DNA of 64,000 nt from NCBI RefSeq assembly GCF_964213995.1, contig NC_135813.1, forward strand, positions 74,772,001-74,836,000, read 5' to 3'. Below the pieces are notes generated by a model. That model saw only the letters and a program-made list of their open reading frames with translations. It was not told where the DNA came from and did not search any database. This document shows positions 996-60,836 of the stretch, one piece after another. The translations under genes and the position numbers were made by a program. Numbering within the stretch: the first letter of the stretch is position 1; the number at the start of each line of letters is the position of its first letter. Origin of the DNA: Mustelus asterias. Its lineage: Eukaryota.

Positions 996-1812
996 AGACC
1001 GGATGACCAGGTTAGACATAGAATGTCATTTGTGACTGTGATAACAAGCATCACAATACTGTGCCAAGGCAGAAACCTGAGTGGAGGAATTCAAGCATAG
1101 AATTCCAGGAAAGATGAGCACGAATTTGGGGTTTGGGAGACACCTTGGAGGAGAGATTGAGGTTGGAGAAGGAATGTGGACAGAGAAAGGGGTCAATGGC
1201 TCTTTTTCTGAAGAAAACGTGATGACAGAACATTTAAAGAAGGGCAATAGTACCAAAGAGAGAATTGTTAACTGTGCTATTAACTGCTACTGTAAGTGAA
1301 TAGGGAGAGAGTGGACACAGAAGGAAGCAAGGTTAGGAAGGGGAAAGAGGGCTGTGGATGGAGAGTGATAAGAGTAATCAGAAATGACTTCATCTGTGAT
1401 TGACAACATGGAAGTAGCATGGTCATGTAAGGTGGCAAGTGGTTATAAATAAGGGTTTGGGACTTTATTTGGATGGAGAGATTAAGGAAGAATGGGAAGG
1501 AAATGAACTCAAAGGAGAACATGATGAATTGAAATGCAGGCTGAAATCACTGAGGATGAGAAGTTGGTATCTTGGTCAGAAAATTTTTATGATATTTGAG
1601 TGGGCAGTAGAAAAGTGAGGATTTTAAATTTGGTCAAAATTGTGGTCTTTCCCAAGTCTTATATAATTGCAGCAAGACGTCTTTACACTTCCAAACCCCT
1701 TGCGAAAAACAAAGACCAACATATCATTTGCTTTCCCAAATTGCTTGCCGCCAGCAAGGTAGCTTTCTGTGATTTGTACTCTTGGACACCTCGAGTCTCC
1801 GTACAAACCGAC

Positions 1813-2072
1813 GTTACGAAGGGTCATCCAGACTTGAAACGTTGGCCGGAATTTTACCGTCCCATCCGCCAGGGAAATCGGAGCGGATGAGGGGGCGGAC
1901 CATGGAAAGGTCTGTTGACCTTGGGGGGGCGGGATTTTACAGTTTCAGGACAAGCGAGACTGCAAAATCCCGCCCGTTGGCTCTGTTCTCTCGCCACAGA
2001 TGCTGTCAGACCTGCTGAGATTTTCCAGCGTTTTCTGTTTTGGTTCCAGCATCCGCAGGGATTTGCTTATAT
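1813..2072 (+). mobile_element. PLE family B 3' end (hammerhead remnant) interrupted by a MITE at ~1844-1974
   Basis: acgaagggtcatccagacttGAAACGTTgg, then the MITE, then ctctgttctctcgccacagatgctgtcagacctgctgagattttccagc..., same as the copy at 20742. Confidence 0.7.
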
Positions 2073-2328
2073 TTAATTTTGGCGTTGGGGGCGGGGACGC
2101 ATTCTGCTTTCCCATCCTCCTAACAAAGTGAATAACTCCACACTTTAACCCCACAAAATGCCTCTATTAGCTGCCAGCACAAATCTCCCAAGTCTGGGCC
2201 CATCTCGCCAAAACAGGGGAACAAATGAACGACGCGTACACTGATATATTTTGCCCTTTACTCTTCCAGCGAAGTGGATCCCGAGTAATACAGGGACCCA
2301 GTGGACGAGGCAACAGTACGACTCATAC

Positions 2329-2748
2329 CTGTCCAGGTGAGCTCTCGCTGCACAGGTAATGTGCCCGCCTCGCGCCGCCGTTGCGACAGCAGCAATCACC
2401 AGGGCTGTGGAGCGAACCATCACCGGTAGGGAGGGGGAAACCATTGGCACGACAGCCAGACGACAGACATGACAAAACACCCCCTCCCCCCAGCCTTAAA
2501 AACACTTTAGACACTATAATAACCTTAGCACGGGTAAATCAAAGAAAATAAATCTTCATCAGCGTTGTTCCAACAGTGATGATGTGTATTCTTCCATTCT
2601 CCCCCTTGTTGCTAAGAAGAGAATGGGCGCACCCAGTAACCTCTGACCTTTCTGGGAGCTGCGGCGCACGCGCCGTTCGGTTGAGCGAGAGAGAGAGGGG
2701 CACGCGTGCGGACGGCTCGGGCAGTTTGGATTCAGTCGGCGGGGAGCC
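2329..2748. promoter_or_regulatory. CpG-rich bidirectional promoter and 5' UTR region shared by RITA1 and DDX54
   Basis: Local CpG/GC enrichment, NRF1-like gcggcgcacgcgcc and gcacgcgtgcg, DDX54 ATG in a good Kozak context (gagccATGG), and a strong minus-strand donor (CAG|GTATGAGT at 2329/2328) for a probable RITA1 5' exon. Confidence 0.65.
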
Positions 2749-2892
2749 ATGGCGCAGAAGAAGAAAGGGCCCAACAAATGGCGGAAGCCCCGGGCTCACT
2801 CGAAGCCTCGCCACCGGGACGTAGATGTGGAGAGTGACGGCGGGGAGTTCCAGCTGGCCCCGCTAACCGAGGAGGATGACGGCACGGACAAG
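2749..2892 (+). CDS. DDX54: DDX54 exon 1
   Basis: [13 protein letters not shown]...ESDGGEF...DGTDK|gttggt, phase 0. Confidence 0.9.
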
Positions 2893-5800
2893 GTTGGTGG
2901 GCCGGGAGCAGGAGTTATTTTTTTTTGCCGGTGAGGCCGACATGCCTGTCAAACCAAAATAGTGCGGAAATCGGAAAGCCGAAGCCGGTAAGATTCAGCA
3001 GGGCGGCAGCAGCTTTAATACGTCTCATCAATACTTTTCCCCGTATCCCAGTACTTGTGACAATAAATCCATTCAATCCCTACAGAGAGGGATCAGAGCT
3101 AACGTTTCAGTTCACTGGCATCTCTGCCAAACTGGAAAAATAATCGCAGGTTTTAGGCAAACTTGGGAACGCTGGAAAGACGTGAATGGGTAGGAAGGCA
3201 GGAGGCTTTAAATGACAATAATGGTGTAAGTTCATGGTACTTGGTAATTTTACAAAGTTCATTTATTAGCTTCACAAGTAGGCCTACATTTAACACTGCA
3301 ATGAGGTTACTGTGAAAACCTCCTAGTTGCCACACTCTTGGTGCCTGTTCGGGTACACTGAGGGTGAATTTAGCATGGCTGATGTACCTAACCAGCAAGT
3401 CTTTCGGACAGTGGGAGGAAACCCACACAGACACGGGGAGAACGCACAGACTCCACAGAAAGTGACCCAAGCTGGGAATCGAACCTGGGTCCCTGGTGCT
3501 GAGGCAGCAGTGTGAACCATTGTGCCACTATGTCGCCCTATCTGGTGAATGTAAATATTTTAGCTTATTTCTTTAGGATCTTTGTTGAAAAGGGCTGAGT
3601 GGCTCTGATCTTTCTCATCTCTCTTCTGTGACAGCTAACTAACAGCGTAAGATTTTTGTTCAAAAAGTTGCCCTCCATTCAATAAATGTAGTGTATGGCA
3701 CAGAAACAGATGATTCAACCCTATTAGTCTATAGTGATATTCTTGCTTCACATGAGCTTCCACTCACCCGACTTCATCTGAAGCTATCAACATATCCTAT
3801 TTTTCTTTTCATGCCTTTACCTGGCTCCCATTTAAATGCATTGATCCTATATGGAACATTCTTTTAAAAAATCTGTTAACCAAAGCCTTAAGAGTAGCTG
3901 GTTTTGTGTATTGAGTCAATGATTGTTTATCCTTGCTGATGAACTGATGCCTGATATGAATCATTGTGGATTTATATTTATTGCTGAGATTACCTCTGTA
4001 AATCTAGCCATGCAGACTGTGATGCCTTAATTCAAAACTCATCTTACATGGTACCTTTAGATATTTTTCATTATCCTACAGAAAACAAGGAAGCAATAAC
4101 ATTCAGTTGTGAGGATTTGCACTAAAAAGTTTGTTTTTAGTTTGAATGTACACTAGAAATTGATTTTGCTCAGAATCTAATTAATTGTAAATGAAGTTAT
4201 TTCAGAGATAACTTAAATGTAATTATCTGGGTTTAATTACTTTCACAGTGCAGCTTCAGACATTTACCAAGCTTTCCTTCAGCCGATTGTCCATCAGACG
4301 TGGAACCAGACACCCGTGAGATGGTCCGACAACAGAATAAGAAGAAGAAGAAGTCAGGAGGCTTTCAGTCAATGGGTACACCCAACAGCTTCTGATACTT
4401 GAATTACTTTTTTGATCATTTGAGCCACTAAAGTTCTAGCAAGTTAATTTATGTAGTCCTTGACAAACCAGTTATGACCTAAGTAGTTTGTTTTTCCATT
4501 TAGTAGACATAACCCCGATGTTCATTTTCTTAAAACATAATCTAGATACTGTAGTATGCTGTTCTCAATTCATCTAGAGCTGTGCTCTATGGCATTTGTT
4601 AAAAGTGGTGCAGATGTTTCATATTCGGCTTCATCTCAGTGTTCAACAACCTAAATAGACGATCAGCAAGGGCACAAAATAGTATTTCTCCCAACAGAAG
4701 CAGTTTCTTTATTACAAGATGCTGCAACAAAGAACAGCACAGGAACAGGCCCTTTGGCACACCAAGTCTGTGCTGACACAGATGCCTCCCTAATCTAATA
4801 TTTTCTTGCCTCTATGTGGTCCATATGCCTCTATTCCCTGCCTATTCATGTGTCTATCCAGATGCCTGTTGAACTTTGTTATAAAATCTGCTTCCACCAC
4901 TACCTCCGGCAGCGCTTTCCAAGCATTCGCCACTCTCTGTGTGAAAAACTTGCCCTTGCATCTCTTTTAAACTTTCTCCCTCTCACTTTCAACCAACCTG
5001 GTGGCACTGTGGCGCAGTGGTTAGCACTGCTGCCTCACAGCAGCAGGGACCTGGGTTCGATTCCCAGCTTGGGTCACTGTGTGGCATTTGTGCGTTCTTC
5101 CCACATCTGCATGGGTTTCCTCCGGGTGCTCCGGTTTTCTCCCACACTCCAAAGATGTGCGGGTTGGGAGGGTTGGCCATGCTGAATTGCCCCTTAGTGT
5201 CAGAGGACTAACTAAATGCATGGGGTTATGGGGATAGGGCCTGAGTGGGACTGTGGTCATGCAGACTCGATAGGCCGAATGGCTGCCTTCTACACTAATA
5301 TTCTATTCTATGCCCCTGAGTAATTGACTCTTCGACCTAGGGAGAAAAACTCTGACTATCCACTCTATCCAAGCCTGTCATAATATTGTAAACCTCTATC
5401 AGGTCCCCCTCATCCTCCGACACTCCAATAAAAACAGTCCAAGTTTGTTCAACCTTTCTTCATAGTGCATATCCTCCAAACCAGGCAACATCCTGGTAAA
5501 TCTCTTCTGCACTCTTTCCAAAGCATTAATGTCCTACTGGTAGTGTGGCGACTAGAATTGTACACAATACTCCAAATGTGGCCTAACCAAAGTCTTATAC
5601 AACTGCAACAGAATTTTCCAATTCCTATACTCAACGCTCCGACTGATGAATGCCAGCATACCATATGCCTTCTTGACCACCTTGTCCACCTGAATTACCA
5701 CCTTTAGGGAACTGTGGATCTGCACACCTAGATGCCTCTGCATGTTAATATTTCATTTATTATATACTTTCCTTCTGCAGTAGACCTTCCAAATCGCATC

Positions 5801-8800
5801 ACCGCACATTTGTCTGGATTAAATTCCAACTGCCATCTTTTGGCCCAGGTCTCCAGCCGATTTATATCCTCTGACATTCCTCCTCACGATCAGCTTCTCC
5901 CCAAATTTTTGTATCATTGCAAATTTACTAATCAGACACCTACATTTTACTCCAAAGGCGTCCCAACACTGACCCTTGTGGGATCCCATATGATTTATCC
6001 TAATTCTGTTGCATGTTCTATCTTCACGTTTTCGTAAACAGATGCATCATCATCTGGTTTAAAACCAGATGTAACTGACGAAACAGTTTTAAATTAAAAA
6101 CAAAAATTGAACTGTTGGTTGTTGTCCTGTTGCAAGCATTAGTCAAGAGGAAACATTATTTAAATGAAAAACAGGGTGGAGAACATTTTGGTTAAGATGT
6201 GCATATATAATTCAATTTATGTTTCAAAGTCGCACGTCCTGGTCTTAATTTTTTGCAATACTTTATTTCAAGTTGCCATAAGTTTTGCTATTTAACAAAG
6301 TCAGAGAAATTTGGAACATAAGAGTTTCTGCTTCTCAGATGGCTGTGAGTCTCTAGAATTCTCTTCCTCAAAAAGCAGTGGAAGCAGAACCTTTGAATAT
6401 TTTTAAGGCAAAGCTAGGTAGATTCTTGATTAACAAGGGGGTGGAAGGTTATCAGGGTAGGCCAGAATGTGGGTTTGAGGTTACAATCAGATCAGCCATG
6501 ATCTTATTGAATGGCGAAACAGGCTTGAGGGTCTGAGTGGCCTACTCCTCTTAATACGTATGCTTATAAACTGAACACTATAGAAATGTACAGTTGAGGT
6601 GCCACAGACCGATAAATGTGTAGCTACAAAGTAATTTTAATTTGACTGTAAATGTAGATATCTATGCAAATATGTGACAAGTAATATTTTCTGGACAAAA
6701 ACTGCATTACATAGTTAAAAATTTGAATATATAAATGTGACAGGAAGACTTGCTTAATTTTTTATAAATTAATTGCTTTGCATATCTTTCTGTTTGCCTT
6801 TTACTGTATTGGCCGGGGTTCTCCCAAAGATATTCGAAGTGCCAAATTCACATAAAAAAACTGGAATAACTCCCGTTGGTTTTTTCTTCAGTCCCGGACC
6901 TACTAATCAGATTCAAATGAAGATTTAAATATTTTAATCAGCTCCACACCAATTTTCAACGTAGAGCTGACGCCGCCGGCAATCTGGGGCCCAGAGGCCG
7001 TGGCGCCCAGCAGGAATCCTGCTAAATGGCCTCCGCTTATGTCTCCCAGCCTGCTTTAGCTGGGGAAATCGCCCCCATTTACTTTTTCTTGGTGCCTTAG
7101 ATATTCCTGTCTGGTTTGCTGGCTAGCTTCATGCTGTCATATTAATGCAGTCATTGCAGAGATATTCTGGTATCAGAGTGTGTGCATCAAACACCACAAT
7201 TGTGGCAGCCAACACTGCACAGCGATGTTATGCAGAAATTATACATTTTTTAACATTTGTACAAAATGGCTATTACAAAATTGATAACTTTTGTTTTTCC
7301 ACAGGTTTAAGTTTTCCTGTTTTTAAAGGCATAATGAAGAAAGGATACAAAGTACCAACACCAATTCAGAGAAAGGTAACTTGTCGTGGTGCTAATATTA
7401 GAGCAAATCATTGCCACAACGATTTTTGTTATAAATTCGCACATATAGAGGAAACATCATGGGTGAAAATCATTGTTTATTTATATTGTGCTAATGGCAC
7501 CAATTTGTGATAGTTATTCATTCATGATCAAAATAAAAGGCTACCATAAAAATGACCAGATAAAAATTGTACATTTGATGGTTCTTCATCAACAGATAAA
7601 ATATATGATACGCTCTACATGAAAAGGTATTCTCAAATAAAAGGAAATTTTTTAAAAATAAGGAAGGGAGCGTTAGTGTAATAGTAATGTTGCTAGACCT
7701 AGTATTCCAGAGGTATGGACTAATGCTCTGGGGACCTGTGTTTAAATCCTACTACAAATTAATTTGGAATAAAAATGCTGTTCTCATTAACAGTGATCAT
7801 GAAACTACCAGATTGTTGTGAAAACTCATCGGTTTCACTTATGTCCTTCAGCTACAGTCTTATGTAGCTCAGCCTGACCTACATGTGACTCCAGCAATGC
7901 CATTGACTCTTAAACATCCTATGAAATGGCCTAATTAAATTCTATCAAACTGTTACAGAAGAGTCAAACATTGGTCATAACTACACCACATGAACTACAG
8001 TGTTCAAGAAGGCAGTTCACCTCCACATTCTCAATGGCAGTTAGGGATAGGCGATAAAAGCTGACCTTCTCAGCTATGTTCACACCCATAGAATGGATGA
8101 AAAAATTATATGTAGTTAACATTTTCATTCAGTTGTGTTATCATTGTTTTCAAACTTTAAAATCCATGTGAACAGTTTCTGCACTTGCCAGGTTTATATT
8201 TGTAACTGCAACCTCTGTGTCATAGTTGAATCTCAACCATCAATCAGGTTAAAATGATTATAAATTGTTCTTGCTTTGCATGCTGCTTTCTCCTCAGCAG
8301 AGATAGCAAGCAACTCTTCTGCTATCAGACCTCTGCTGATCTTCAGCTGACTATAAATGCATGCGAAAGAGCAGTGTTGACCAACTCCCCAAATAATTTC
8401 AGTACATTTTGAATAAGTTTGGTAGGGAATAAACTTTCCAAACAGCATCTTGACTGTTAGCTCTGTTGTGATTAGCAGCTCAGTTTGTGTACAGGGGAAT
8501 AATGATCAAATTTGAGAAAGGGAAGCAACTTGATTTTGACCAGCGAATTTTCAAGAGGTAGATGATTTCTGTATTTTGGAAAATGAATTACCACAGTTTG
8601 AAAGTTTACCTTGAGGAATTATTTCACTTGCATATTTTTGAGATAAAAATCTGTTCTTGGTTTTAGACTATCCCGCTGATACTGGATGGCAAGGATGTCG
8701 TTGCTATGGCTAGGACAGGTAGTGGTAAGACGGCAGCATTTCTTATTCCATTGTTTGAACAGCTGAAGGTGCACAATGCTCAGTCAGGAGCAAGAGCTTT

Positions 8801-11800
8801 AATCCTGACTCCAACTAGAGAACTGGCATTACAGACCATGAAGTTCACAAAAGAGGTAAAATACTTCCTTCTGGCTTTATGTATTCAATAAATCTGGAAT
8901 TAGATTAGCAAGCATGGAATCTAACAGTTATTTGGTTCCTAAATAGTTTGTTGCATTCATATTGCTACAGTAGAGGCCTTAAAGTGTTTTTTCAGTACCA
9001 TTTTGAAATTCTTACCATTCCAGGAGAATTTAAACTGTTAAAAACAAACTGCATTATTAAGCAATCACACGAAGTGATGGGTAAAATTTGAACAGATTAG
9101 GACAGCTGTAGTATATCTTTATGTCTGACTGAGTGTTCTCTGTCTTGCTTTTCCATGATGTGGAGATGCCGGCGTTGGACTGGGGTAAACACAGTAAGAA
9201 GTCTCACAACACCAGGTTAAAGTCCAACAGGTTTATTTGGTAGCAAATGCCACTAGCTTTCAGACGAAGGAGCAGCACGCTCCGAAAGCTAGTGGCATTT
9301 GCTACCAAATAAACCTGTTGGACTTTAACCTGGTGTTGTTAGACTTCTTACTGAATTGATTTTTCATGTCAGGCAAGCCAACAAGAAGTTAAATATCAGG
9401 AGCAGATAGTCTCAAATAAATCAAAATATTCGTGTCTCAAAATTGTCCGTCACACAAAAAAGAAAATATTTGCATTTATAGAACGCTTTTTATAACCGTC
9501 GGATATCTCAATAATTTTTTCCACTCAATTAAGTATATTTTTACTACAGCCATTTTGCAATGTAGGAAACCTAATTCATCAAGCAAAGAAAAATCTTTGT
9601 ATTTGTGTAACATCTTACCATAACTCTTAAAAACATTCAAAATAGCTTCATAAACAATAAATTACATACTTTAACTTTACATACTTTAACTGCGGATTAA
9701 TCCGGGATAGTCAGCACAGATTTGTGAAGGGCAAGTCGTGCATCACAAATTTGATAGAATTTTTTGAGGAGGTAACAAAGTGTGTTGATGAAGGTAGGGC
9801 AGTTGATGTCATATACATGGATTTTAGTAAGGTATTTGATAAGGTCCCCCATGGTCGGCTTATGATGAAAGTAAGGAGGTGTGGGATAGAGGGAAAGTTG
9901 GCAGATTGGATAGGTAACTGGCTATCTGATCGAAGACAGAGGGTGGTGGTGGATGGAAAATTTTCGGACTGGAGGCAGGTTGCTAGCGGAGTGCCACAGG
10001 GATCAGTGCTTGGTCCTCTGCTATTTGTGATTTTTATTAATGACTTGGAGGAGGGGTTTCAGATAAAGCTCGGCAGGGTGGATCAGTAAGCTTGCTGATG
10101 ACACCAAGATTGGTGGAGTAGTGGATGAGGTGGAGGGCTGTTGTAGACTGCAAAGAGACATAGATAGGATGCAAAGCTGGGCTGAAAAATGGCAGATGGA
10201 GTTTAACCCTGATAAATGTGAGGTGATTCATTTTGGTAGGACAAATTTAAATGTGGATTACAGGGCCAAAGGTAGGGTTCTGAAGACTGGAGGAACAGAG
10301 AGATCTTGGGGTCCATATCCACAGATCTCTGAAGGTTGCCACTCAAGTGGATAGAGCTGTGAAGAAGGCCTATAGTGTGTTAGCTTTTATTAACAAGGGG
10401 TTGGAGTTTAAGAGCCGTGGGGTTATGTTGCAACTGTACAGGACCTTGGTGAGACCACATTTGGAATATTGTGTGCAGTTCTGGTCACCTCGCTATAAGA
10501 AGGATGTGGAAGCGCTGGAAAGAGTGCAAAGGAGATTTACCAGGATGCTGCCTGATTTGGAGGGTAGGTCTTATGAGGAAAGGTTGAGGGAGCTAGGGCT
10601 GTTCTCTCTGGAGCGGAGGAGGTTGAGGGGAGACTTAATTGAGGTTTATAAAATGATGAAGGGGATAGATAGAGTGAACGTTCAAAGACTATTTCCTCGG
10701 GTGGATGGAGCTATTACAAGGGGGCATAACTATAGGGTTCATGGTGGGAGATATAGGAAGGATATGAGAGGTAGGTTCTTTACGCAGAGAGTGGTTGGGG
10801 TGTGGAATGGACTGCCTGCAGTGATAGTGGAGTCAGACACTTTAGGAACATTTAAGCGGTTATTGGATAGGCACATGGAGCACACCAGGATGATAGGGAG
10901 TGGGATAGCTTGATCTTGGTTTCAGATAAAGCTCAGCACAACATCGTGGGCCGAAGGGCCTGTTCTGTGCTGTACAGTTCTATGTTCTAAAATCATAATT
11001 TTGTATATTATAAAATGTAACTGGACAAAACATAGTTAGAGTTACATTACTGATATAAAGTTAAAGTTATTAGTCACAAGTAAGGCTTACATTAACACTG
11101 CAATGAAGTTACTGTGAAATTCCCCTAGTCGCCACAGTCCAGTGCCTGTTCAGGTCAATGCACCTAACCAGCGCATCTTTCAGAATGTGGGAGGAAACTG
11201 GAGCACCCTGGGGAAACCCATGCAGACACGGGGAGAACGTGCAGACCCCACACAGACAGTGACCCGGGTCCCTGGTGCTGTGAAGCAGCAGTGCCACCGT
11301 GCTGCTATGGAATGTGCCTTTGGTGCTTCCTTACTCCAGTACAGTTTTCCTTGATACATAATGTGTGTAGTTACTTCTTTACTGCTGATTGGAACTAATA
11401 AATCCAAAGAATGAGCATAGTTTTTTCATCTGGATGTGTTTGTGTATTAATTCCACTTAATAGGATATTTTATCTTTTAAACTAATATTAAAGAAAAGAT
11501 TATATTATTTGTATAAATAAAGCACGGATATTGTCCAGATTAAGAATTGTGGTCCAGAGTTATCTATTACATATTTCAGATTTTATTTTGGAATATTTAT
11601 TTAATGCTGGTTATAGAGCCTTGACAAATGCTTCATGCTTGTGTTGAATAAATATACCATTCATTATCAAAATATAAACAAAAGCTTTACTGCACACAAT
11701 TTTCTGATCTATCTTTATTTGCAGCTTGGAAAATTTGCTGGCTTCAAAACAGCTTTAATCTTGGGCGGAGACAAGTGAGTATCTTTTTGGATGGTAATCT

Positions 11801-41636: not shown

Positions 41637-41849
41637 ATGATGTGCAGATGCTGGCATTGGACTGGGGTGGGCACAGTAAGAGGTCTCCCAACACCAGGTT
41701 AAAGTCCAACAGGTTTATTTGGAATCATGAGCTTTCAGAGCACTGCTCCTTCATTAGATGAGTCACCTGATGAAGGAGCAGCACTCCGAAAGCTCGTGAT
41801 TCCAAATAAACCTGTTGGACTTTAATCTGGTGTTGGGAGACCTCTTACT
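41637..41849. mobile_element. PLE family A (variant subfamily) fold-back insertion
   Basis: Tail plus inverted arms. TSD attcaata(t/a)ga. Inserted in a CR1 3' remnant. Confidence 0.85.
41760..41802 (+). ncRNA. Minimal hammerhead motif
   Basis: gagtcac-CTGATGA-a-ggagc agc actcc-GAAA-gc-TC-gtgattc, 7-bp stem I including one G-U. Confidence 0.7.
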
Positions 41850-45300: not shown

Positions 45301-48300
45301 CCTTATTAATCAAGAACCTATCTATCTCTGTCTTAAGACACTCAATGACCTAAAGAGGTGCAGGTTAGGTTGATTGGCCATGCTAAGTTGCTCCTTAATG
45401 TCAGGGGAACTAGCATGGTAAATACGTGGGGTTACAGATATAGGACCTGGATGGGATTGTTGTCGGTGCAGGCTTGATGGGTCGAATTCCTTCCTGCAAT
45501 GTTGGGATTCTATGATTCTAAGAGTGGGTCAAGAAGCTTCTTGAGTCTATTCTGCATTTCATTTGATCGTGGTTGATCTGTACTTTAATTCTATTTACTC
45601 AGCTTTGCTCCATATCCTTTCAGAACATCATGGAACAATTTTTTTTTCAAGACATTTGTCGAGAGTTTGTCTTGAGATGAACAACCAGTGCAGATCAGTA
45701 TTCTTCCTGCATATGTTGCAGCCAATCCATGTGTATGTCACAATTTTTTGTAATCAGTACAGCCTATATTCCTCTACAGAATAAAAAGCATAATGATTTC
45801 CAGCTCCTTCGATGGATCAGTTGGTAAAATAATTCAGAAATGGAAGTCCTAGGTTTGACTCCCTGTTCTGAACAGTCGGTGTTTCAGAATTGACTTCAGT
45901 GAGACAGAGAGGAAATCATCCAACCTTTCTATTCTTGACCACTGCTGGAAAGTGATTATTTCCAATTCCAATTCTCTTCCTGCACCTAGTGGTGCACTGA
46001 GGCAGACTTTTGTCTGTTCCATGGCTAGTAATTCCTGGTAAGGAGTCTAACAACACCAGGTTAAAGTCCAACAGGTTTATCTGGTAGCAAACGCCACTAG
46101 CTTTCGGAGCGCTGCTCCTTCGTCAGATGGAGTGGAAATCTACCACTCGCAGTGTGGAGTGGATTTCCACTCCATCTGACGAAGGAGCAGTGCTCCGAAA
46201 GCTAGTGGCGTTTGCTACCAAATAAACCTGAAGGACTTTAACCTGGTGTTGTTAGACTCCTTACTGTGTTTACCCCAGTCCAATGCCGGCATTTCCACAT
46301 CAGTAATTCCTGGAACAGGTCGCTAGTCTGTTGCCAGGAGCTTATAGCTTGAGGGGCGCCACTCCAAGCGTGGCTGACCAGTCTTCCCCTGCCTTACTGC
46401 CAGCCATTGATCTGTTTGGAAGGGTGTGCAGATTGACACACCCAACCTGTTTGACTGCTTTATGAATGCATCTTCCTTGGCCATCAAGTCCTGGGATGGG
46501 ACTCGAATCTGGAGCTTCTGGCTCACGAGAGGGGACATTGACAATTGCGCCACAAGACCATTGAATGGTTAGCACTGTTGCCTCACAGGGCCAGGGACCC
46601 GGGTTAAATTCCAGCCTTGGGTGACTGTCTATGTGGAGTTTGCACGTTCTCCCCACGTCTGCGTGGGTTTCCTCCGGATGCTCTGGTTTCTTCCCACTGT
46701 CTGAAGACGTGCAAGTTGGGTGGACTGGCCATGCTAAATTACCCCTTAATGTCCCATGATGTGTAGCTTAGATGGAAAATGTGTAGGGTTGGGGGATAGG
46801 GTGGGGGAGAGAGTCTGAGTAAGACATTCTGTCAGAGGGTCGGTGTAGACCCAATGGGCCGAATGGCCTCCTTCTGCACTGTAGTAGCAGTGTGGTTAGC
46901 ACTGCTGCCTCAAGCGCCAAGGACCCAGATTTAATTCCAGCCTTGGGTGACTTGGGATGGAAAGGAAAAGTAAATAATTATACAGCTTCATTCTATGAAG
47001 TGATTAGTTGGTGATGTTATTATTGGGCTTAACTGCAATGCCTGTGAAGGAAGGTACAGCCCGCTGATACTCACCAGACTCCTACATGAAGAATGTTGAC
47101 TGATTTAAGCAAGATACCAGAGGATTGTCACTAAGGGTGGAACTGTATCAAAGCAGGAGTTAGCACTTCAGAGTGGAGAACATTGGAAAAATAAATGTTT
47201 GAACAATTCCATTCCCACTGCAAAACTGCAGAAAAAGCCTGAAATAGAATGGGAATAAATATGATCCACATATAAACAGCACACTTACTGCATCAAGCTG
47301 CGTGTCTGTATCATCCGATGCAGTGACAGATTTCATATCTGCTTTTCTTACATGCATGTAAATGTTAAAAATTGCCATCTTTGTCATGCCCAAGATAAGG
47401 GTCCTTTTAGCTGCTGTGTTTTGAATATGTGCCCATGTGGATTCCTGTAAAATTAGATAATGGTACAATTTCTTTTGAAATCACTGTGCTAGTTACTTAT
47501 GATCTTCAATAAAAACATGTTCTTAGTCATTTGAAAAGTTTATTCTGGCAAAATATCTTTGAAATAACATTGATCCAGATTATGTAGTGAGCTGCAAATT
47601 AACATCGCTCGCCAGTTCTCACTGTTGAACTTGCTTGCAGATGTTATGTGGTTTTTTAAACATGCTAATTAAAGAGAGTCAAATTAGTGCAGACCCTTCT
47701 CCAGGAGATCCAGAACCTGTGTCTCCTCGCAGTGGCATTGTGGTTAGCACTGCTGCCTCACAGCGCCAGTGACCTGGGTTCAATTCCCAGCTTGGGTCAC
47801 CGTATGTGTGGAGTCTGCACGTTCTCCCTGTGTCTGCGTAGGTTTCCTCCGGGTGCTCCGGTTTCCTCCCACAGTCTGAAAGACGTGCTGGTTAGGTGCA
47901 CTGGTCAAGCTAAATTCTCCCTCAGTGTACCCAAACAGGCTAAGAAGTCTCACAACACCAGGTTAAAGTCCAACAGGTTTATTTAGTAACATAAGCCACT
48001 AGCTTTCGGAGCACTGCCCCTTCATCAGGACTTACCTGATGAAGGGGCAGCGCTCCGAAAGCTAGTGGCTTGTGCTACCAAATAAACCTGTTGGACTTCA
48101 ACCTGGTGTTGTGAGACTTCTTACTGTGTTTACCCCAGTCCAACGCCGGCATCTCCACATCATGGCTACCCCAAACAGGCGCCAGAGTGTGGCGACTAGG
48201 GGATTTTCACAGTAACTTCCTTGTAGTGTTAATGTAAGCCTACTTGTGACATGAATAAATAAACTTGAAACTCCTCAACTAACCAGCTTGAAAAATTCTT

Positions 48301-51300
48301 ACTGAATTCCCCAGATTATAAACAGGTTAAGTCTTAGTTAGACTACTGAAACCTGTGTAAAATGATGAGATCTAAGGATTTTTGGCTTAATTTCTAGAAA
48401 ACACTTACCCCTTTTATAACTTTCGCTTTGGCATCTTCCAATCGAGCTTGTAATGCAGCCAGGCTATTATGGTATGTCATAACATCATTATTTTTTTCTT
48501 TCATGAATTGGTTATGATTGGCTTTAATTGTCTTTATGACTTCTTGATCTTCATTGTACTTTGCAATTAGGAGGTCATATGTATGAAATAAAGTCTCAAA
48601 ACGTGTGTTCACCATCCTGATGTCCTGAAACTTAAAAAAAAAAGCAACAAGAAAATCAGGAGCAGTTTGTTTATATACCAAGAGTTTGAGAAAAAATAAA
48701 TTTACTAACACTTGCATCCAAGTGAGGAACGGTTGAGGATTCTGGGTCTGTACTCGTTGGAGTTTAGAAGGATGAGGGGGGATCTTATTGAAACTTACAG
48801 GATACTGCAAGGCCTGGATAGAGTGGACGTGGAAAGGATGTTTCCATTAGTAGGAAAAACTAGAACCAGACGGCACAACCTCAGGCTAAAGGGACGATCC
48901 TTTAAAACAGAGATGAGGAGGAATTTCTTCATCCAGTGAGTGGTGAATCTATGGAACTCTTTGCCGCGGAAGGCGGTGGAGGTCAGGTCATTGAGTAAGA
49001 CAGAGATAGATAGGTTCTTGATTAATAAGGGGATCAGGGGTTATGGAGAAAAGGCAGGAGAATGGGGATGAGAAAAATATCAGCCATGATTGAATGGCAG
49101 AGCAAACTCAATGGGCCGAGTGGCCTAATTCTGCTTCTATGTCTTTATGGTCTTATGGCGTACAGTCTTGCATCAATCTTAAAGAAAAGGGCCTCTATTA
49201 ACTTATTAACGCCAAGGTTCCTTGTTTCTGTCTGTAATATCACTTATCTTTACCTCCCGCCATTGAAGCTGAATTGCTTGCACATACTTCTGCAACATCC
49301 AGATTTATTTGCTGGTCTTTCAGGTGTCATCCTTCACAGAATGAAACACATCCAAAACCTTGCTGTTTCTCTTTCTTAGGGCAGAATGAACTGGTGTGCA
49401 GGAGGGGCGGGTACAATTGGATGCCATGGCAGAAACCCATTGCCTGCCCACTCTTGCTTACATGTGGCATGGAGCATCAGGCAGCCTACTCACCAGTGGG
49501 CCATTTGTGGCCCTTAGATGGCCAATTAATGCCTACTTTAGACCTCCTCCCACCATCGCTAGGATCTGCCCTACAGCAGAGGGTGGGGGCCAAGTATCCA
49601 GACCACCAGGTGAAAACCAGCAGCCTTGTGGCCGGGCTGGAGTGGGAGTTGTTGGTGCCTCATGTCTCAGGGGTGGTACAGTGGTTAGCACTGCTGCCTC
49701 ACAGCGCCATGGACCTGGGTTTAATTCCCGGCTTGGGTCATTGTCTGTGTGGCGTTTGCAGATTTTCCCCGTGTCTGCATGGGTTTCCTCCGGGTGCTCC
49801 GGTTCCCTCCCACAGTCCAAAAGACGAGCTGGTTAGGTGGATTGGTCAAGCTAAATTGCCCCTTAGTGTCAGGGGGACTAGCTAGGGTAAATGCATGGGG
49901 TTATGGGGATAGGGCCTGGGTGGGATTGTGGTCAGTGCAGACTCGATGGGGGTCGAATGGTCTCCTTCTGCATTGTAGGATTCTATGATTCTATCCTCCT
50001 CATGCCCATTAGAGGCACCCCAAGGTATTTCCCAGCTCCCCACACAAACCTCCTCGACCAGCACTTGCTGGGCCCTGCCAGCCAGGCTCCAGCAAGAACC
50101 TGAACTTACCTAAAGGCTTGCGCCCCATCAGCATTTCCTCCTCGGGCCTGCATACAGCCTCAGCTATGATCAGCGTACCCAGTGGCATTGCTTGGACAAG
50201 AGCGCTGCTGGCCATTGATCGGCAGGCAGCTTTCAAGAGGTGGGATACGTTGCTGAGGACAGAAGAAGGGCTGCCTCAAATCAATGACACTAAATAGCTG
50301 CAGCAAAAGCCGGCCAAGCACAGTTGGGCTCACCTCTGAATTTAGCACAGGGCGGGACAACTGGCCCCAACATAAAATTCAGCCCCAAATCCCATTGCTT
50401 TATTACCCCATTCTTGTTAAACTTCAAAGGTTCCACCTCCACCAACTTCAAAATCCTTGCCATCATCTATTAGTCTCTCTAAGACCTTGTTGCTCTCTAT
50501 CTCCTCAAGACCAACATTCCATCATACGTTCACTGATCTTCCAGCTCGGGCCTCCTTTGCGTCCCTCTCTATTTTGGTTCCATCTTTGGCTGCAAACCAT
50601 TCAGCCAGTTTAGTCCCATAGTTAGGAATACTCTCTCTGTATTATCTCTCTCCATTAATTCAAAGGCCTCCCCAAAACCTATTTAAACAGTATTTAAAAA
50701 CTCTGCAACTAGCCTCAATGAGTATGCCACTACGGTAACTGACTTCGTTAGTAAATGTGTAAAAGATTGTGCCAAAGAAGCAAATCCGCGTGTTTCCCAA
50801 CCGGAAACCATGGATAAACAGGGATAAACACAGTAAGAGTTTTAACAACACCAGGTTAAAGTCCAACAGGGATATCCACTGCTTGCTGAAGTCTAGGTCT
50901 GAGGCGTTCAAGCCAGGCGACACTGACCTATACAAGAAACAGTAAGAAGTTTAACAACATCAGGTTAAAGTCCAACAGGTTTATTCCTGTTGGACTTTAA
51001 CCTGGTGTTGTTAAACTTCTTACTGTGTTTACCCCAGTCCAACGCCGGCATCTCCACATCATGACTATACAAGAAAGCCAGATATGATCCAAGAAGATCC
51101 ATCAAAGATGCCAAAAGACAGTACCGGACCAAGCTAGAGACCCAGGCTAGCCACATGGACCCCTGCCGATTATGGCAAGGTCTGCAAGATATAATAAGCT
51201 ACAAGATGGTGGGTGCATCAAATGAAGCTTTGTGGGTAGAGCTTAGGAATAAAAAAGGGACAGCTACATTGCTAGGTGTTTATTATAGACCCCCAGATAG

Positions 51301-54300: not shown

Positions 54301-57300
54301 AGAGGTCAGCGAGAGCACGCCCTCCACCCTGGAAGCCTCAGATGAACCTGATGTATCTGAGATCACCATGACAGATGTCAGAACAGCCTTCTCGAAGGTC
54401 AGCCCACGGAAAGCGACTGGCCCGGATGGGGTACCCGGACGAGCACTCAGATCCTTTGTGGATCAGCTGGCAGGGGTATTTGCAGACATCTTCATCCTCT
54501 CTTTACAACAATCTGAGGTCCCTGTCTGCTTTAAGAAGACAACCATCATCCCGGTACCAAAGAAAAGCCAAGCAGCGTGCTTTAATGACTGTCATCCAGT
54601 CGCTTTGACATCCATCATTATGAAGTGCTTTGAAAGGTTAGTCATGGCACAAATCAATTCCAGCACCTGGATTGCCTGGATCCACTATAGTTCGCCTACC
54701 GCCGCGACAGGTCCACAGTGGATGCCATCTCCCTGGCCCTGCACTCAACCCTGGAACACCTAGATGATAAAGTCACCTATGTCAGACTCTTATTTATTGC
54801 CTACAGCTCAGCCTTCAACACCATCATTCCTGCGAAACTCATCTCCAAACTCCTCAACACCGTGCCCCACTAGACTGTGTCCTCAGCCCTCTATTATACT
54901 CCTTATACACCGATGACTGTGTGGCCAAATTCCCCTCCAATTCGATTTTCAAGTTTGCTGACAACACCACCGTAGTGGGTCGGATCTCAACCAGTGACGA
55001 GACAGAGTACAGGAATGAGATAGAGAATCTGGTGAACTGGTGCGACGACAATAATCTCTCCCTCAATATCAACAAAACAAAGGAGATAGTCATCGACTTC
55101 AGGAAGCACAGTGGAGAACATGCCCCTGTCCACATCAATGGGGACGAAGTAGAAATGGTTGAGTGCTTCAAGATTTTATGTGTCCAGATCACCAACAACC
55201 TGTCCTGGTCCCCCCATGCCGACACTATGGTTAAGAAAGCCCACCAACGCCTCTACTTTCTCAGAAGACTAAGGAAATTTGGCATGTTTGCTGCTTCTCC
55301 AGCTTTTCCACCAACTTTTACAGATACATCATAGAAAACATTCTTTATAGTTGTATCAGAGCTTAGTATAGCTCCTGCTCTTCCCAAGAACGCAAGAAAC
55401 TACAAAAGGTCGTGAATGTAGCCCAATCCATCACGCAAACCAGCCTCCCATCCATTGACTCTGTCTACACTTCCCGCTGCCTTGGAAAAGCAGCCAGCAT
55501 AATTAATGACCCACGCACACGGACATTCTCTCTTCCACCTTCTTCCTTCGGGAAAAAGATACAAAAGTCTGAGGTCACGTACCAACCGACTCAAGAACAC
55601 CTTCTTCCCTGCTGCCATCAGACTTCTGAATGGACCTACCTCGCACTAAGTTGATCTTTCTCTACACCCGAGCTATGTCTGTAACACTACATTCTACACT
55701 CTCTCCTTTCCTTCTCAATGAACGGTATGCTTTGTCTGCATAGTGCAAGAAACAATACTTTTCACTGTATTCCACTAATACATGTGGCAATAATAAATCA
55801 AATAAAATAAATCAAATCAAATCAAAAGCCTATTGCTTTAAGACCATCTTCAATCATTACCTACTTCCAGAACTACTTGTATCTGATTATGTTTGCCTCT
55901 GTGAAGCATTAAGTGTGCTAAAAGAAAAGTGCAAGCTATTCATTCCCCTTCCAAAAAAGTACCATACATACAAAACTTAAGCGACACATTCTTTAAACAG
56001 TTACCTCCTTTGACATTTTGATTACGTTCTCCAAGAATTTTGGATAAATGGAATATGCCTCCACTTTCTTCTTCAGTTTCTCCCTCTTCTTGATGAGATC
56101 TTCCAGCTCTATTTTAAATTGAACAAGATCCTTTTCCTTCTGTTTTATTAGTTCGGTCTCAGTAATTATTTTGCTCTTTGCTCTTTTTTGCTTGGCATCA
56201 TTTTCCTTAGGAGGCGGAAGAGGTAAAGTAACAAGCATCACTGCACAAATTACTGTCACGTTAAAAAAACGGTTTTGAATAGGTCATCTTCCCCTGCAAA
56301 CCCTTTTAAGTTGCATCTCTAATTCAGGCCTAATGATTGCCTAGGATTGTGGGAGGCCCTTGTCTGAATATCTTACCCTGAGTTATTCCCTCACTTAAGA
56401 TGAGCAAATAATATAGCTTCCGCATGCCCTTTGATGACCTAAATTGAATGTTCCCAGTCACTTTTATTGGAGCAATATTACTGCCTCTGAACCCGAAGCT
56501 CTGGGTTCGAGTCCCACCCCAGGACTTGATGGCCAAGGGAGGTGGGTTTATAAAGCCGCCGATAGGTTGACTGTCAACTTGCAAAAATGCTTCCAACACG
56601 TCAATGGCGGGCGGTAAGAGTGGGGGAGACTCCTGGTCAGCCAGGCCTGGTGTGAAGTGACGCCCCTCAAGTTATAAGCCTCCCACAATGAAAGTTGGTA
56701 CGTGCAATTTGAGATCACTGGGACCGCAAATGTACATTCAGACCCCTGGCTCAGAAATGTCTCATCTGCCAATGGCCAAAAGCATGTATTGTGTGGTCTT
56801 CGAAACCAATCAACACAAAACATTTGGCACTGACCTCTGGAGGCCCTGTATGACCTGGTAGGCCTCAACATTAAAATGTAACAAGGCCAAGTACCAGGAG
56901 TCGAAGTCATGTCTTGATAGACACAATTGTCCAAAACTGGCAGTGATACTAGAAACAACAGGGTATGTTACACAGTGAACGTTCTGATCCACTTGGAAAT
57001 AACAAGTAACAGACTCTATACTCCTTAAAGGAGCAAAGTGCCTGCTGCTGGCAGTTTAAAATAAACCATGCTCTTTCCCTTTAACTAAATGAAACTAGAG
57101 ATGGACTTAGAGCAGTCGGAATGCTAAAAACCAAAAGCTGCTTAAAAGCCCACATGAATCATAGAAATCGTAGAATCCTACAGTGCAGAAGGAGGCCATT
57201 CAGCCCATCGAATCTGCACCGACCACAATCTCACCCAGGCCTTATCCATAACCTCATGCATTTACTCTAGCTAGTAGCCCTGACACTAAGGGGCAACTTA

Positions 57301-60300
57301 GCATGGCCAACCGCACAGGAGTAGAGGCCACTACTGAATAGTTATACTTTAGCTCTTCTTTTCTGACTTGTGATACATAGAATTATACAGAATCTATAGC
57401 ACAGAAACAGCCTGACTATGCCAACAAAAGTATATGCCTTTGTTTGTGCTCGAAATCAGCTTCCTCTCACCATGTTTGATCTAACCTTATTAACATAATC
57501 TTTTACTCCTTTCTCCTTCATAGGCTTATTGAGCAATCTCTTAAATGCAACCATGCTACTAACCTCAGCTACTCCGTGTAGTAGCAAGTTCCACATTTCA
57601 ACTACTCTGAGAAATTCACCAAAATTTCTTCTTGTATTCATTAGTGATGATTTTATATTTATGACTGTTAGTTTTGGATTCTCCGACAAGTGGAAATATA
57701 TTCTGTACGTTCCCTCTATCAATCCCCTTCATAATTTTAAAGTCAGCTATTAGGACATCCCTCAACTATCCCTTCTTTAGAGAAAAAAGCTATGGCCTGT
57801 TCAGTCCTTCGTGATGGTCATATCCCTTTGGTTCTGATATGATTCTTGTGATTATCGTTTGCACCCTTCTCCGGTTCTTGTATATCCTTGTTGTGATGTG
57901 TAGACCAAAGCTGTAAGCTGGACAGCTGGTTCATTATGCAGAGCGACGCCAACAGCGCGTGTTCAATTCCTGTCCCGTCTGAGGTTATTTATGAAGGCCC
58001 CACCTTCTTAACCCTGCCCCTTGCCTGAGGCGTGGTGATCCTCGGGTTAAATCACCACCAGTCCTTTTTTACCTTTTCACATTGTTTGTATTTTTTAAGG
58101 CTCTGTTAAACTTGTGTTGCGAGTTTTTGTTTGTCTGTATCCCTGCATCTCTTTACTTCCACGGAATATGTTGATTGGCCAGGTTAAAAATTGCCCCTTT
58201 AGAATCCTGAGATGCGTAGGTTAGAGGGCTTAGCGGGTAAAAATGTGGGGGTAGGGCCTGGGTAGGACTGTGGTCGGTGCAGACTCGATGGGCCGAATGG
58301 CCTCCTTCTGCACTGTAGGGTTTCTATGATTTCTTCCTTTTATCCCTTCCAAAATGCACCACCTCATACTTATCTAGATTGAAATTCATTTTTAATTGCA
58401 CACCCTAAGGTTAACTAACTTATCAATTATCTCTCCTTTCTGTCTTAAATGTTACTATATCTTTTTAAACCTCATTTTCCAATATTATGTTCACCATGTT
58501 AGTCTCCCGGGTAAATATTGAGGCAATGCAATGATTCAATATTTATGCCATTCCTTTGTTATTATCTTTAAGTTTATACTTTTTATTATTAAGTGGCACA
58601 GCCTTCCTGATCTGCTTATTCCTCTGCCAATCAAGATGTGGCTCAGGTACTTATCTAGAGATTACCACTCATGAAATCCTGCTTTGTAATTGTTTCCTAG
58701 CTCCTCCTACTCCCTCATTAGCACCTCCTCCTTGTTCTTTCCTATGTAATGCCTCCTGACATGGACCCACAAGAACTGAATCTACCTCCTCACCCCCCCC
58801 GTGACCCCCCTTCTTTATCAAGCTGTCCCTCTGAGATACCCTTTAACCATTGCATCAAGGAGGCAGCACATCCTCCTGGACTCTCACTCACGACAGCAGA
58901 GAATGCTATCTGTCTTCCTAATTATCAAATCCCCTGTGTTTGCACCCATTCTACTCTGTTCCTCCCTGTCTTTAGACTGCCTCCTGCTCCTTGGTGCCAT
59001 GGTTAGCATTCTAGCCATCTTACTTGCACACTTCATCCTTATCCTTATAGGTAGTTTACATTGAGGCCTTGTGGCACAGCCTCTGAGCCTGAAGCTCTGG
59101 GTTCAAGTCCCACAGTAAGAAGTCTCACAACACCAGGTTAAAATCCAACAGGTTTATTTGGTAGCAAATACCATAAACTTTCGGAGCGCTGCCCCTTCGT
59201 CAGATGGAGTGGATATCTGCTCACAAACAGTGCACAGACACAGAAATCAAGTTACAGAATACTAATTAGAATGCGAATCTCTAAAGCCAGCCAGGTCTTA
59301 AAGGTACAGACAATGTGGGTGGAGGGAGCATTCAACACAGGTTAAAGAGATGTGTATTGTCTCCAGACAGAACAGCTAGTGAGATTCTACAAGCCCAGGA
59401 GGCAAGCTGTGGGGGTTACTGATAATGTGACATAAATCCAACATCCCGGTTTAGGCCGTCCTCATGTGTGCGGAACTTGGCTATCAGTTTCTGCTCAGCG
59501 ACTCTGCGCTGTCGTGTGTCGTGAAGGCCGCCTTGGAGAATGCTTACCTGAAGATCCAAGGCTGAATGCCCGTGACTGCTGAAGTGCTCCCCCACAGGAA
59601 GACCCCTCTTCCTGTGGGGGAGCACTTCAGCAGTCACGGGCATTCAGCCTTGGATCTTCAGGTAAGCGTTCTCCAAGGCAGCCTTCATGACACACGACAG
59701 CGCAGAGTCGCTGAGCAGAAACTGATAGCCAAGTTCCGCACACATGAGGACGGCCTAAACCGGGATGTTGGATTTATGTCACATTATCAGTAACCCCCAC
59801 AGCTTGCCTCCTGGGCTTGTAGAATCTCACTAGCTGTTCTGTCTGGAGACAATACACATCTCTTTAACCTGTGTTGAATGCTCCCTTCACCCACATTGTC
59901 TGTACCTTTAAGACCTGGCTGGCTTTAGAGATTCGCATTCTAATTAGTATTCTGTAACTTGATTTCTCTGTCTGTGCACTGTTTGAGAGCAGATATCCAC
60001 TCCATCTGACGAAGGGGCAGCGCTCCGAAAGCTTATGGTATTTGCTACCAAATAAACCTGTTGGACTTTAACCTGGTGTTGTGAGACTTCTTACTGTGCT
60101 TACCCCAGTCCAACGCCGGCATCTCCACTTCAAGTCCCACCCCAGGACTTGATGGCCAAGGAAGGTGGGTTTATAAAACTGCCGATAGGTTGACTGTCAA
60201 CTTGCAAAAATTCTTCCAACACGTCAATGGCAGACGGTAAGAGTGGGAGAGACTCCTGGTCAGCCGGGCTTGGTGAGGAGTGACACCCCTCAAGTTATAA

Positions 60301-60836
60301 GCCTTTGGCGACAGACACGTGGCCTGTTCCAGGAGTAACTAGCTATGGAAACAGATGAAAGGCTGCTTTGGTGCACCACCAAAAATAGAGTATGTAATAG
60401 CTGTTGGATAGGTCCAGTGTCTGCAGGGCCTCATTCCCCACCTCCCTTTGACTGTACCGCATACAACATGGAAGTGACATATTTCATGTGAATATAGTGA
60501 TGTTACTGCTACTTTTGACACCACTTAATTTCTGATCAATTTACCCAGAAAATGACCTTTGGACTGTGTTATTCTTGGAACGGGCTGGCTCCATGAACAT
60601 CATAGCTCAAGAATTAATTCTGAATAGGTTACTGAGTTACAAAATAAGAGTCATCATTAAACACGGATATTTTCAAAGCCAACAAATATAATCAGAATGG
60701 TCTGGCCAGTCCACACTGCCTCCATGTTTACCTCCAAGAACTTATCAAATTTGATAAACGATTGTTTCAGCTCCTCTTCCTTCTTGTTTAGTTCCTCTCT
60801 TCTCTGCTGTAACAGTTTGAGTTTCACCTGGAATTC
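42273..60836 (-). CDS. CFAP73: Cilia- and flagella-associated protein 73 (CCDC42B), 3' five coding exons; 5' exons not found in the window
   Basis: Phase-0 exons 60732-60836, 56005-56205, 48409-48630, 47289-47444 and 42273-42356 join in frame. DUF4200-type coiled coil (EF...QQRREEL..KE..LK.S..KFDKFL.ENDAK) and [12 protein letters not shown] motif of the CCDC42 family. CFAP73 rather than CCDC42 is inferred from tail-to-tail synteny with DDX54. Confidence 0.85.
42930..43110 (+). mobile_element. V-SINE 5' fragment
   Basis: tRNA head and V-domain. Confidence 0.82.
43795..44092 (+). mobile_element. V-SINE, tail type 2
   Basis: Full-length copy ending gcctacttgtgacactagtgaataaact. Confidence 0.86.
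46038..46301. mobile_element. PLE family A fold-back insertion
   Basis: ~100-bp inverted arms, tail, TSD agtaattcctgg (46027-46038 and 46302-46313). Confidence 0.88.
46172..46208 (+). ncRNA. Minimal hammerhead motif (mirror copy on the minus strand at 46094-46130)
   Basis: ccat-CTGACGA-a-ggagc agt gctcc-GAAA-gc-TA-gtgg. Confidence 0.72.
46565..46952 (+). mobile_element. V-SINE followed by a second 5' head fragment
   Basis: ggttagcactg...ctgcactgtag, then gtggttagcactgctgcctc. Confidence 0.8.
47289..47444 (-). CDS. CFAP73: CFAP73 exon
   Basis: tacag|[29 protein letters not shown]...DTDTQLDA|gtaagt. Confidence 0.9.
47941..48166. mobile_element. PLE family A fold-back insertion inside a V-SINE
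   Basis: Arms meet at catcagg-actta-cctgatg. TSD tacc(c)caaacaggc. Confidence 0.88.
48032..48068 (+). ncRNA. Minimal hammerhead motif
   Basis: ttac-CTGATGA-a-ggggc agc gctcc-GAAA-gc-TA-gtgg. Confidence 0.65.
48409..48630 (-). CDS. CFAP73: CFAP73 exon
   Basis: ttaag|[14 protein letters not shown]...[22 protein letters not shown]|gtaagt. Confidence 0.88.
48720..49160 (+). mobile_element. CR1 3' end fragment
   Basis: [25 protein letters not shown]...RRNFF. A similar minus-strand tail lies at 45180-45350. Confidence 0.85.
49672..49992 (+). mobile_element. V-SINE, CR1-type tail, nested in a GC-rich MITE-like element (49379-50325)
   Basis: Full-length copy. The host resumes across a cctcatg duplication. 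Confidence 0.85.
50940..51064. mobile_element. PLE family A minimal fold-back insertion (~40-bp arms) inside Rex1
   Basis: caacagg-tttatt-cctgttg centre, tail, TSD ctatacaagaaa (50928-50939 and 51065-51076). Confidence 0.85.
51209..54229 (+). mobile_element. CR1/HER1-like LINE (~3 kb, endonuclease remnant plus RT), disrupted, inserted in Rex1
   Basis: [64 protein letters not shown]. 3' tail ctgtagtattctgtgattct. Confidence 0.93.
53037..53380 (-). mobile_element. V-SINE nested in CR1
   Basis: Full-length, well-preserved copy. Confidence 0.88.
56005..56205 (-). CDS. CFAP73: CFAP73 exon
   Basis: ctaag|[12 protein letters not shown]...[17 protein letters not shown]|gtaact. Confidence 0.88.
57375..57915 (-). 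mobile_element. Degraded CR1 3' fragment
   Basis: Minus-strand RRNF...RVVEMWNLL. Confidence 0.6.
59114..60128. mobile_element. Penelope-like element (family A) fold-back insertion: 492-bp inverted arms, GIY-YIG C-terminus, hammerheads, 30-nt tail
   Basis: Arms 59111-59602 and 59607-60098 around a CCCC loop. Both encode [13 protein letters not shown]...[27 protein letters not shown]. 12-bp TSD ttcaagtcccac (59102-59113 and 60129-60140). Confidence 0.92.
60002..60038 (+). ncRNA. Minimal type I hammerhead ribozyme motif (PLE-type)
   Basis: ccat-CTGACGA-a-ggggc agc gctcc-GAAA-gc-TT-atgg: stem I ccat/atgg, palindromic AGCT stem III. Confidence 0.75.
60732..60836 (-). CDS. CFAP73: CFAP73 exon
   Basis: ggtag|[35 protein letters not shown]|gtaaac. 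Confidence 0.88.

Follow-up and report, generated by a model that had tools for sequence, protein, structure and literature searches.

Results

The palindrome and its host intron

The window that we analysed, a 64,000-nt stretch of the Mustelus asterias genome, contains an intron (56206-60731, minus strand, GT...AG, ~4.5 kb) of a CFAP73/CCDC42-family gene, whose exons at ~60732-60836 and from 56205 leftwards on the minus strand match DUF4200. The genome holds four DUF4200 matches. The best PDB matches of the host protein are CFAP73 chains, and NCBI labels it 'coiled-coil domain-containing protein 42 homolog' (Mustelus asterias). An earlier note on this DNA had named the host as CFAP73. CFAP73 is plausible as the host, an assignment that does not separate it from its paralog CCDC42.

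A long palindrome lies within the intron, with its left arm at 59111-59602 (minus strand) and its right arm at 59607-60098 (plus strand). An inverted-repeat check gave two arms of 492 nt each with no indels, exactly 8 mismatches (about 8 had been counted previously) and CCCC between them, and this pair is the longest among 224 inverted pairs in the window. The mismatches comprise 6 transitions and 2 transversions without compensation, and 3/8 fall at CpG. Only the right arm carries a 30-nt tail (60099-60128, plus strand), and the unit is bounded by a 12-nt target-site duplication (TSD), TTCAAGTCCCAC, with plus-strand copies at 59102-59113 and 60129-60140; both features agree with the earlier description. 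The last three bases of the left TSD copy (CAC) double as paired bases of the left arm, constituting a microhomology between target and element, and the tail end shows no microhomology with the target. The two arms had been thought to be cut off at the same internal nucleotide. This has to be amended, as their inner ends lie 1 nt apart: at the junction (59603-59606) CCC is untemplated, and the C at 59606 matches the element on the right arm.

Both arms represent the same 5'-truncated element end, comprising the endonuclease C-terminus, the 3' UTR and the pLTR. The right arm is in sense orientation on the plus strand, and the tail-less left arm is sense in the host pre-mRNA. The last 61 codons and stop of the element ORF occupy 59608-59793 (plus strand), downstream of the GIY-YIG motif, and an AATAAA motif is found at 60051-60056 (plus strand; mirror 59153-59158, minus strand). 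A hammerhead core, CTGACGA...GAAA, is present at 60006-60030 (plus strand) and at 59179-59203 (minus strand).

The target was an older repeat. A paralogous copy of this repeat, 92.6% identical, lies at 56506-56681 (plus strand); it lacks the insertion and contains the TSD 12-mer once. Before insertion the target would have read CTGG-N14-CCAG, a symmetric signal whose halves now stand at 59097-59100 and 60142-60145 (plus strand). The repeat occurs twice in the intron region (56480-56681; 59076-59113 / 60129-60304; 92.6% identity), with further copies at 46292-46507 and at loci L085 and L164, and contains GGTTCRAGTCCC, which we take to be a tRNA-like B-box.

The insertion derives from a young Penelope-like element

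Searching the genome with the right arm yielded at least 1185 candidate copies, and the other loci among the 40 scored of these 1185 were 98-99% identical to it. Longer copies, 97-99% identical to the focal copy, carry RT motifs, a CX4CxxC linker and a GIY-YIG region in one frame, and several have open frames of ~880-910 codons. Pfam detected RVT_1 in one longer copy (36 bits, cut-off 29.6) and GIY-YIG in a different one at 21.1 bits (E 4e-4), just below its cut-off of 22.6. The linker reads CHSNLCKTC in L031 and L037, which fits CX2-5CxxC between RT and EN. The 61-residue coding piece at the locus alone gave no Pfam match, and it could be identified through longer copies with 98-99% identity. 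These copies uphold the Penelope-like origin proposed in the earlier note. Its claim of a GIY-YIG C-terminus in each arm holds for the ORF end, as seen in the longer copies; the piece itself lies downstream of the GIY-YIG motif.

Neptune and Nematis EN+ Penelope-like elements (PLEs) are described as having one ORF with an RT, a CX2-5CxxC linker and a GIY-YIG domain at the C-terminus, and their insertions as showing 5' truncation, an inverted truncated copy on the 5' side, a 30-40 nt tail at one end only and a hammerhead in the pLTR (PMC8557442, available text). The shark family has this ORF plan, the truncation, the inverted copy, the one-sided tail and the pLTR hammerhead in common with them. 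Its insertions display a partial-tandem pLTR, an inverted 5' copy, a one-sided tail and a TSD; in tandem copies the tail continues into the ORF start, and the tandem pLTR-ORF junction is present in L048, L054 and L061. The focal insertion differs from that account in that the inverted copy equals the direct copy in length to within 1 nt (PMC8557442). On the evidence of the linker we assign the family to the Neptune/Nematis-type EN+ PLEs, a placement that covers both groups jointly, and the sequence identifies the focal insertion as a 5'-truncated copy of a young PLE of this type.

Two other classes of element were considered and rejected. Non-LTR retrozymes, as far as the available descriptions go, require head-to-tail tandem hammerhead units, and the units here face each other head to head and contain part of the ORF. 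A palindromic DNA transposon (MITE or foldback) does not fit either, since the centres vary between loci and the focal centre did not recur among the 40 scored of 98 candidates.

Head-to-head insertions are routine in this family

Surveying 1,073 kb of unselected sequence drawn from five contigs, we found 68 element clusters, 37 of which were head-to-head, or 36 once the focal locus was set aside. A tail was present on exactly one arm in 36/36; C10:44601 has a broken outer end, and the lack of a tail there is uninformative. The arm ends lay at most 5 nt apart in 13/36 loci (permutation mean 2.5) and at most 7 nt apart in 17/36 (permutation mean 3.3), and for either threshold 0/20,000 permutations reached the observed count. 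Both arms were at most 160 nt long in 25/36 loci, and near-equal ends were seen in 11/25 among these short arms alone (3.6 expected). Three of the 11 long survey loci were symmetric (~220-390 nt). The unpaired centre measured at most 10 nt in 15/36 loci, with loops of 1-2 nt in 6/36. In loci whose ends were more than 10 nt apart, the longer arm was the tail-less one in 16/19 (p 0.004) and the tail arm in 3/19.

Loci fetched by element likeness gave a similar picture, with a head-to-head pair in 41/57 (near-duplicates and the focal locus left out). The positions at which equal arm ends occurred were also unrelated to one another (523, 1035 and 1045 nt from the tail end), and palindromes as long or longer exist at L033 (~2.0 kb) and L048 (2072 nt, 99.8%). 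A second copy of the exact focal palindrome or centre was not seen among 40 scored of 98 candidates. The mirror layout is thus a routine product of this family and only the focal length is uncommon. The structure is less exceptional than the earlier note had supposed, and its parts are already known from the available text of three papers: the inverted arm and one-sided tail (PMC8557442), junction palindromes (PMC3846280) and opposed hammerheads (PMC4209133). Our literature search found no shark-specific description of it. Extrapolated from 16 tight hairpins in 1,073 kb, the genome would hold of the order of 50,000, and the hairpins of this family are likely to rank among the major sources of double-stranded intronic RNA in sharks.

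Several individual loci deserve mention. The window itself contains five further members of the family that form short head-to-head palindromes with one tail each (9157-9353, 41639-41849, 46038-46301, 47941-48161 and 50939-51060). At L050 (G000:C9:58874000-58882300), positions 1334-6996 hold two nearly full-length copies head to head, with 2637-nt arms that are 99.6% identical and a 355-nt centre. The L048 palindrome (1324-6380) has a zero-loop centre; its right arm runs as a partial tandem into a long copy, and the tail is at the left outer end. On C13, at window coordinates 88107-91906 (outside the window, L071/L072), a young two-armed copy is nested in an older two-armed copy of the same family. 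Eight equal-score matches on the small contigs G000:C3484, C3394, C2790, C2565, C1274, C521 and C393, two of them 17 kb apart on C2790, are probably one insertion within a tandemly repeated unit.

The hammerhead motif and joins at its predicted cut

The right-arm motif, a minimal type I hammerhead by hand reading against the description in PMC4209133, spans 60002-60038 (plus strand). It combines CUGANGA...GAAA with a palindromic stem III, an NUH site and a short stem I; further minimal-type features are CCAU/AUGG in stem I, an extra A before stem II and the AGCU palindrome, and the cut is predicted after 60034 (60034/60035, GCUU/AUGG). In the left-arm motif (59171-59207, minus strand) the perfect stem III palindrome is lost (AGCU to AGUU). 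The Rfam scan returned no hammerhead model, only generic hairpin and microRNA models below their cut-offs, and free folding did not isolate the motif significantly. The hammerhead on each strand reported previously is confirmed as a core on both strands, with no Rfam match and with one sense copy in the host pre-mRNA. According to the available text of PMC4209133, metazoan PLE minimal hammerheads have a short stem I, an extra base before stem II and a palindromic 15.2-16.2, and occur as motif pairs 100-700 bp apart on opposite strands; the stem features and the opposed pairs are common to the shark element.

We then counted symmetric joins relative to the predicted cut by sequence-pattern searches of the whole genome. 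In the focal subfamily 152 joins fell at the predicted cut versus 1 in the interval 4-7 nt upstream, and in an older subfamily 356 fell at the cut versus 18 upstream. Over all subfamilies, 913 joins lay 5-8 nt and 198 lay 12-15 nt downstream of the cut, and 118 joins lay 10-13 nt upstream of it. Both paired patterns miss a further 408 joins, whose centre is the AGCT palindrome immediately upstream of the cut. Among the first 50 matches listed, 4 of the AGCT-centred joins belonged to the focal subfamily and most belonged to older subfamilies. The step at the cut consequently holds for the young subfamily (152 versus roughly 35 AGCT-centred joins, by extrapolation) and is weak for the older ones, as the 408 AGCT-centred joins are mostly older among the matches listed. 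Ends in the survey also clustered immediately 5' of the ribozyme, ~123-138 nt from the tail end, and this cluster was at least as large as that at the cut.

The joins at the predicted cut are suggestive, short of proof, of a footprint of hammerhead cleavage in vivo in the young subfamily. This footprint does not concern the focal copy, whose arms pass through the motif uncut. The family's joins bear on whether minimal hammerheads cut in vivo: the available text of PMC4209133 presents no evidence of in vivo cleavage, whereas in the shark genome joins pile up at the predicted cut in one subfamily.

Insertion ends and shared variants

Insertion sites of the family carry a recurrent target signal, TG-N16/17-CA centred on the TSD, at 20/22 mappable sites, the focal locus included, versus a background of 5.9%. 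TSDs are mostly 11-15 nt long. Microhomology between target and element averaged 2.1 nt at the tail-less end versus 0.69 nt in shuffled controls (n=26, after 7 loci without a clear TSD were dropped) and 1.36 nt versus 0.47 nt at the tail end (n=22). Such microhomology at both TSD ends is expected if each cut strand primes. Among symmetric joins at the predicted hammerhead cut in the focal subfamily, 15 of the first 50 matches listed had zero loop. In a separate observation, L008, L050 and L052 (TSD ...TCTGATCGAAG) are three independent insertions at the same site of a CR1-like LINE, which fits a sequence-specific target.

Rare variants common to both arms occurred at 0.43 per 100 nt within a locus versus 0.033 between loci (13x), a contrast that is inflated by subfamily structure and that post-insertion conversion between arms could also produce. 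The focal arms share two minority bases that are found together in 4/54 other arms. At the focal locus the arm-to-arm distance is 8 and the closest other copies lie at a distance of 7, so that the arms are no nearer to each other than to those copies. At L036 only one arm has the two minority bases, and these discordant arms suggest two templates at that locus.

Discussion

Probable two-ended priming on one RNA

Taken together, the microhomology at both ends, the shared rare variants, the TG...CA target and the zero-loop joins favour a model in which both target strands prime on one RNA. The single tail in 36/36 loci implies coordination between the two primings, each of which uses a different start site, and the greater length of the tail-less arm is expected if that arm leads on a shared RNA. 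Centres of 0-2 nt suit the annealing of two cDNA ends and are too tight for a hairpin primer. The focal insert is a dead 5'-truncated Neptune-type PLE insertion, and we consider it probable that its arms arose from one RNA primed at both cut ends.

We infer every step of the mechanism from genomic end products. A probably dimeric RT-endonuclease would make a staggered cut ~12 nt wide between TG and CA. The RNA offers two start sites that are a tail apart, and each free 3' end would then pair with it at one of these over 1-4 nt. The enzyme at the inner site would lead, and that at the tail end would follow, displacing the first cDNA. With a broken RNA as template, both enzymes would stop at its 5' end, leaving arms that end together, and the cDNA ends would be joined via a few paired or untemplated bases (CCC here) before the strands are completed by repair. 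A by-product would be the hairpin in the host pre-mRNA, with no sign of function.

A related process is known from L1. In twin priming both target ends prime on one RNA, and the second primer lands far upstream, giving an inversion without duplication. In the shark family the start sites would be ~30-40 nt apart, which would instead give an inverted duplication.

An anole Penelope protein, PAc (Poseidon), offers a biochemical comparison. In vitro, this protein cleaves both strands and extends them, initiating at two positions separated by the tail, and a dimer is predicted for it (PMC11167929, available text). Two-strand cutting and extension, two RT starts bounding the tail and the predicted dimer are all consistent with the shark model. 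PAc of Anolis nevertheless belongs to a different clade and has an AT-rich target, and it initiates without homology to the cleaved DNA, which counts against microhomology priming; the shark family has a spaced TG...CA target and 1-4 nt of microhomology. The available text of PMC11167929 reports that no RNA ends were found at the hammerhead cut.

Extended to the group, our proposal is that PLEs integrate by coordinated two-ended priming, in which a dimer acts on a spaced palindromic target and one RNA is copied in tandem, so that a single step produces both the inverted arm and the one-sided tail, and that the minimal hammerhead of the youngest subfamily cuts template RNA in the germ line, leaving more than 100 cut-centred perfect palindromes. 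We hold the chances of this wider proposal to be evenly balanced. Our literature search found neither a twin-priming model nor an in vivo cleavage footprint for PLEs, and older papers and supplements outside its scope may hold one. The family is a large natural record of Penelope-like integration that bears on the origin of the inverted arm and one-sided tail, and its ends yield specific predictions for the existing in vitro PLE system.

Other accounts of the two arms

Fold-back self-priming, in which a single cDNA (or an antisense template) folds and is copied into a mirror arm, is the published interpretation of comparable structures (PMC3846280). The Penelope insertions of Adineta vaga show an inverted pLTR, a 31-bp tail, 8-10 bp TSDs and junction palindromes in the available text of that paper, and the head-to-head layout, junction palindrome, tail and TSD resemble those of the shark family, whose TSDs differ in being mostly 11-15 nt long (PMC3846280). 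Near-equal ends, shared variants and a longer first arm would be expected under fold-back as well, and a 2-bp stem closed by a 3-nt loop fits many of the joins near the hammerhead. The tail-less arm is, however, usually the longer (16/19), and copying it could not yield the tail unless priming took place a second time. Loops as small as 0-2 nt occur commonly, and the focal CCCC loop provides no primer pairing. We therefore regard fold-back as unlikely here; the shark data better fit two-ended priming on sense RNA than the self-priming on an antisense template proposed for Adineta vaga (PMC3846280).

Two independent cDNAs from different RNAs could also have been joined by end repair, the near-equal focal ends then reflecting chance or a shared pause site. 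L036 fits this reading, as do loci with a far longer tail arm, a condition often met among loci selected for a long tail arm, and short arms do cluster at few positions. Equal ends are, however, ~5x commoner than random pairing allows, an excess that extends to the short arms and to the unrelated positions far from the tail end given above, and the exact focal junction occurs at no other locus among the matches listed. For the focal insertion we judge separate RNAs to be quite improbable, and return to two-ended priming on one RNA as the preferred reading.

The predicted hairpin in the host transcript

Within the host intron the donor is ~590 nt and the acceptor 2.9 kb away from the insertion, and in the host pre-mRNA the antisense arm comes first. 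Folding predictions for the minus-strand pre-mRNA give a single hairpin that takes in the whole insert (-1058 kcal/mol over 1150 nt) and has a 492-bp duplex, in line with the ~490-bp double-stranded RNA anticipated earlier. The only sense hammerhead of the host transcript is predicted to be fully paired and has AGUU for AGCU; buried in this way, it makes self-cleavage of the host transcript unlikely. A-to-I editing of the hairpin is plausible by analogy with lizard, in which Penelope repeats are heavily edited (PMC5625713, available text).

The predicted duplex and the editing in lizard (PMC5625713) might suggest that the hairpin or hammerhead is retained for a host-gene function such as editing, small RNA production or splicing control. 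Given that the mismatches look neutral, that donor and acceptor are distant, and that the survey implies tens of thousands of similar hairpins, such retention is very improbable. The focal locus alone matters little, being a passive, probably fixed intronic insertion.

Authenticity and age of the insertion

That the palindrome is an assembly fold-back, or a later product of repair or breakage-fusion, is scarcely credible: no contig was found spanning the insertion, but the arms differ at 8 sites, 3 of which represent CpG decay, an exact TSD, target signal and one-sided tail delimit the unit, the paralogous empty site has a single TSD copy, and both flanks exactly match sequencing run X1. The arm differences and the insertion-free target copy in particular argue against a fold-back, and the locus can be accepted as real, as the earlier note had assumed. 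In another sample, a 47-nt contig runs across the left junction, from which it differs at one position, and is too short to count as a bridge.

Each arm carries 4 private changes in 492 nt (0.8%). In the epaulette shark the mutation rate is 7e-10 per site per generation and diversity is 0.002 (PMC10587355, available text). With this borrowed rate, the insertion age would be of the order of 10 million generations, an estimate in which some of the differences may be RT errors. Arm decay is several times the diversity of the epaulette shark, and for this reason the insertion is likely fixed; the suggestion that it might be young enough to be polymorphic is not borne out, given the private changes and their share at CpG. 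Compared with the window, two flank contigs from another sample show differences at 0/338 nt and a flank contig of a second organism at 12/324 nt. From these sequences, the insertion is likely fixed, yet younger than the split from the second organism.
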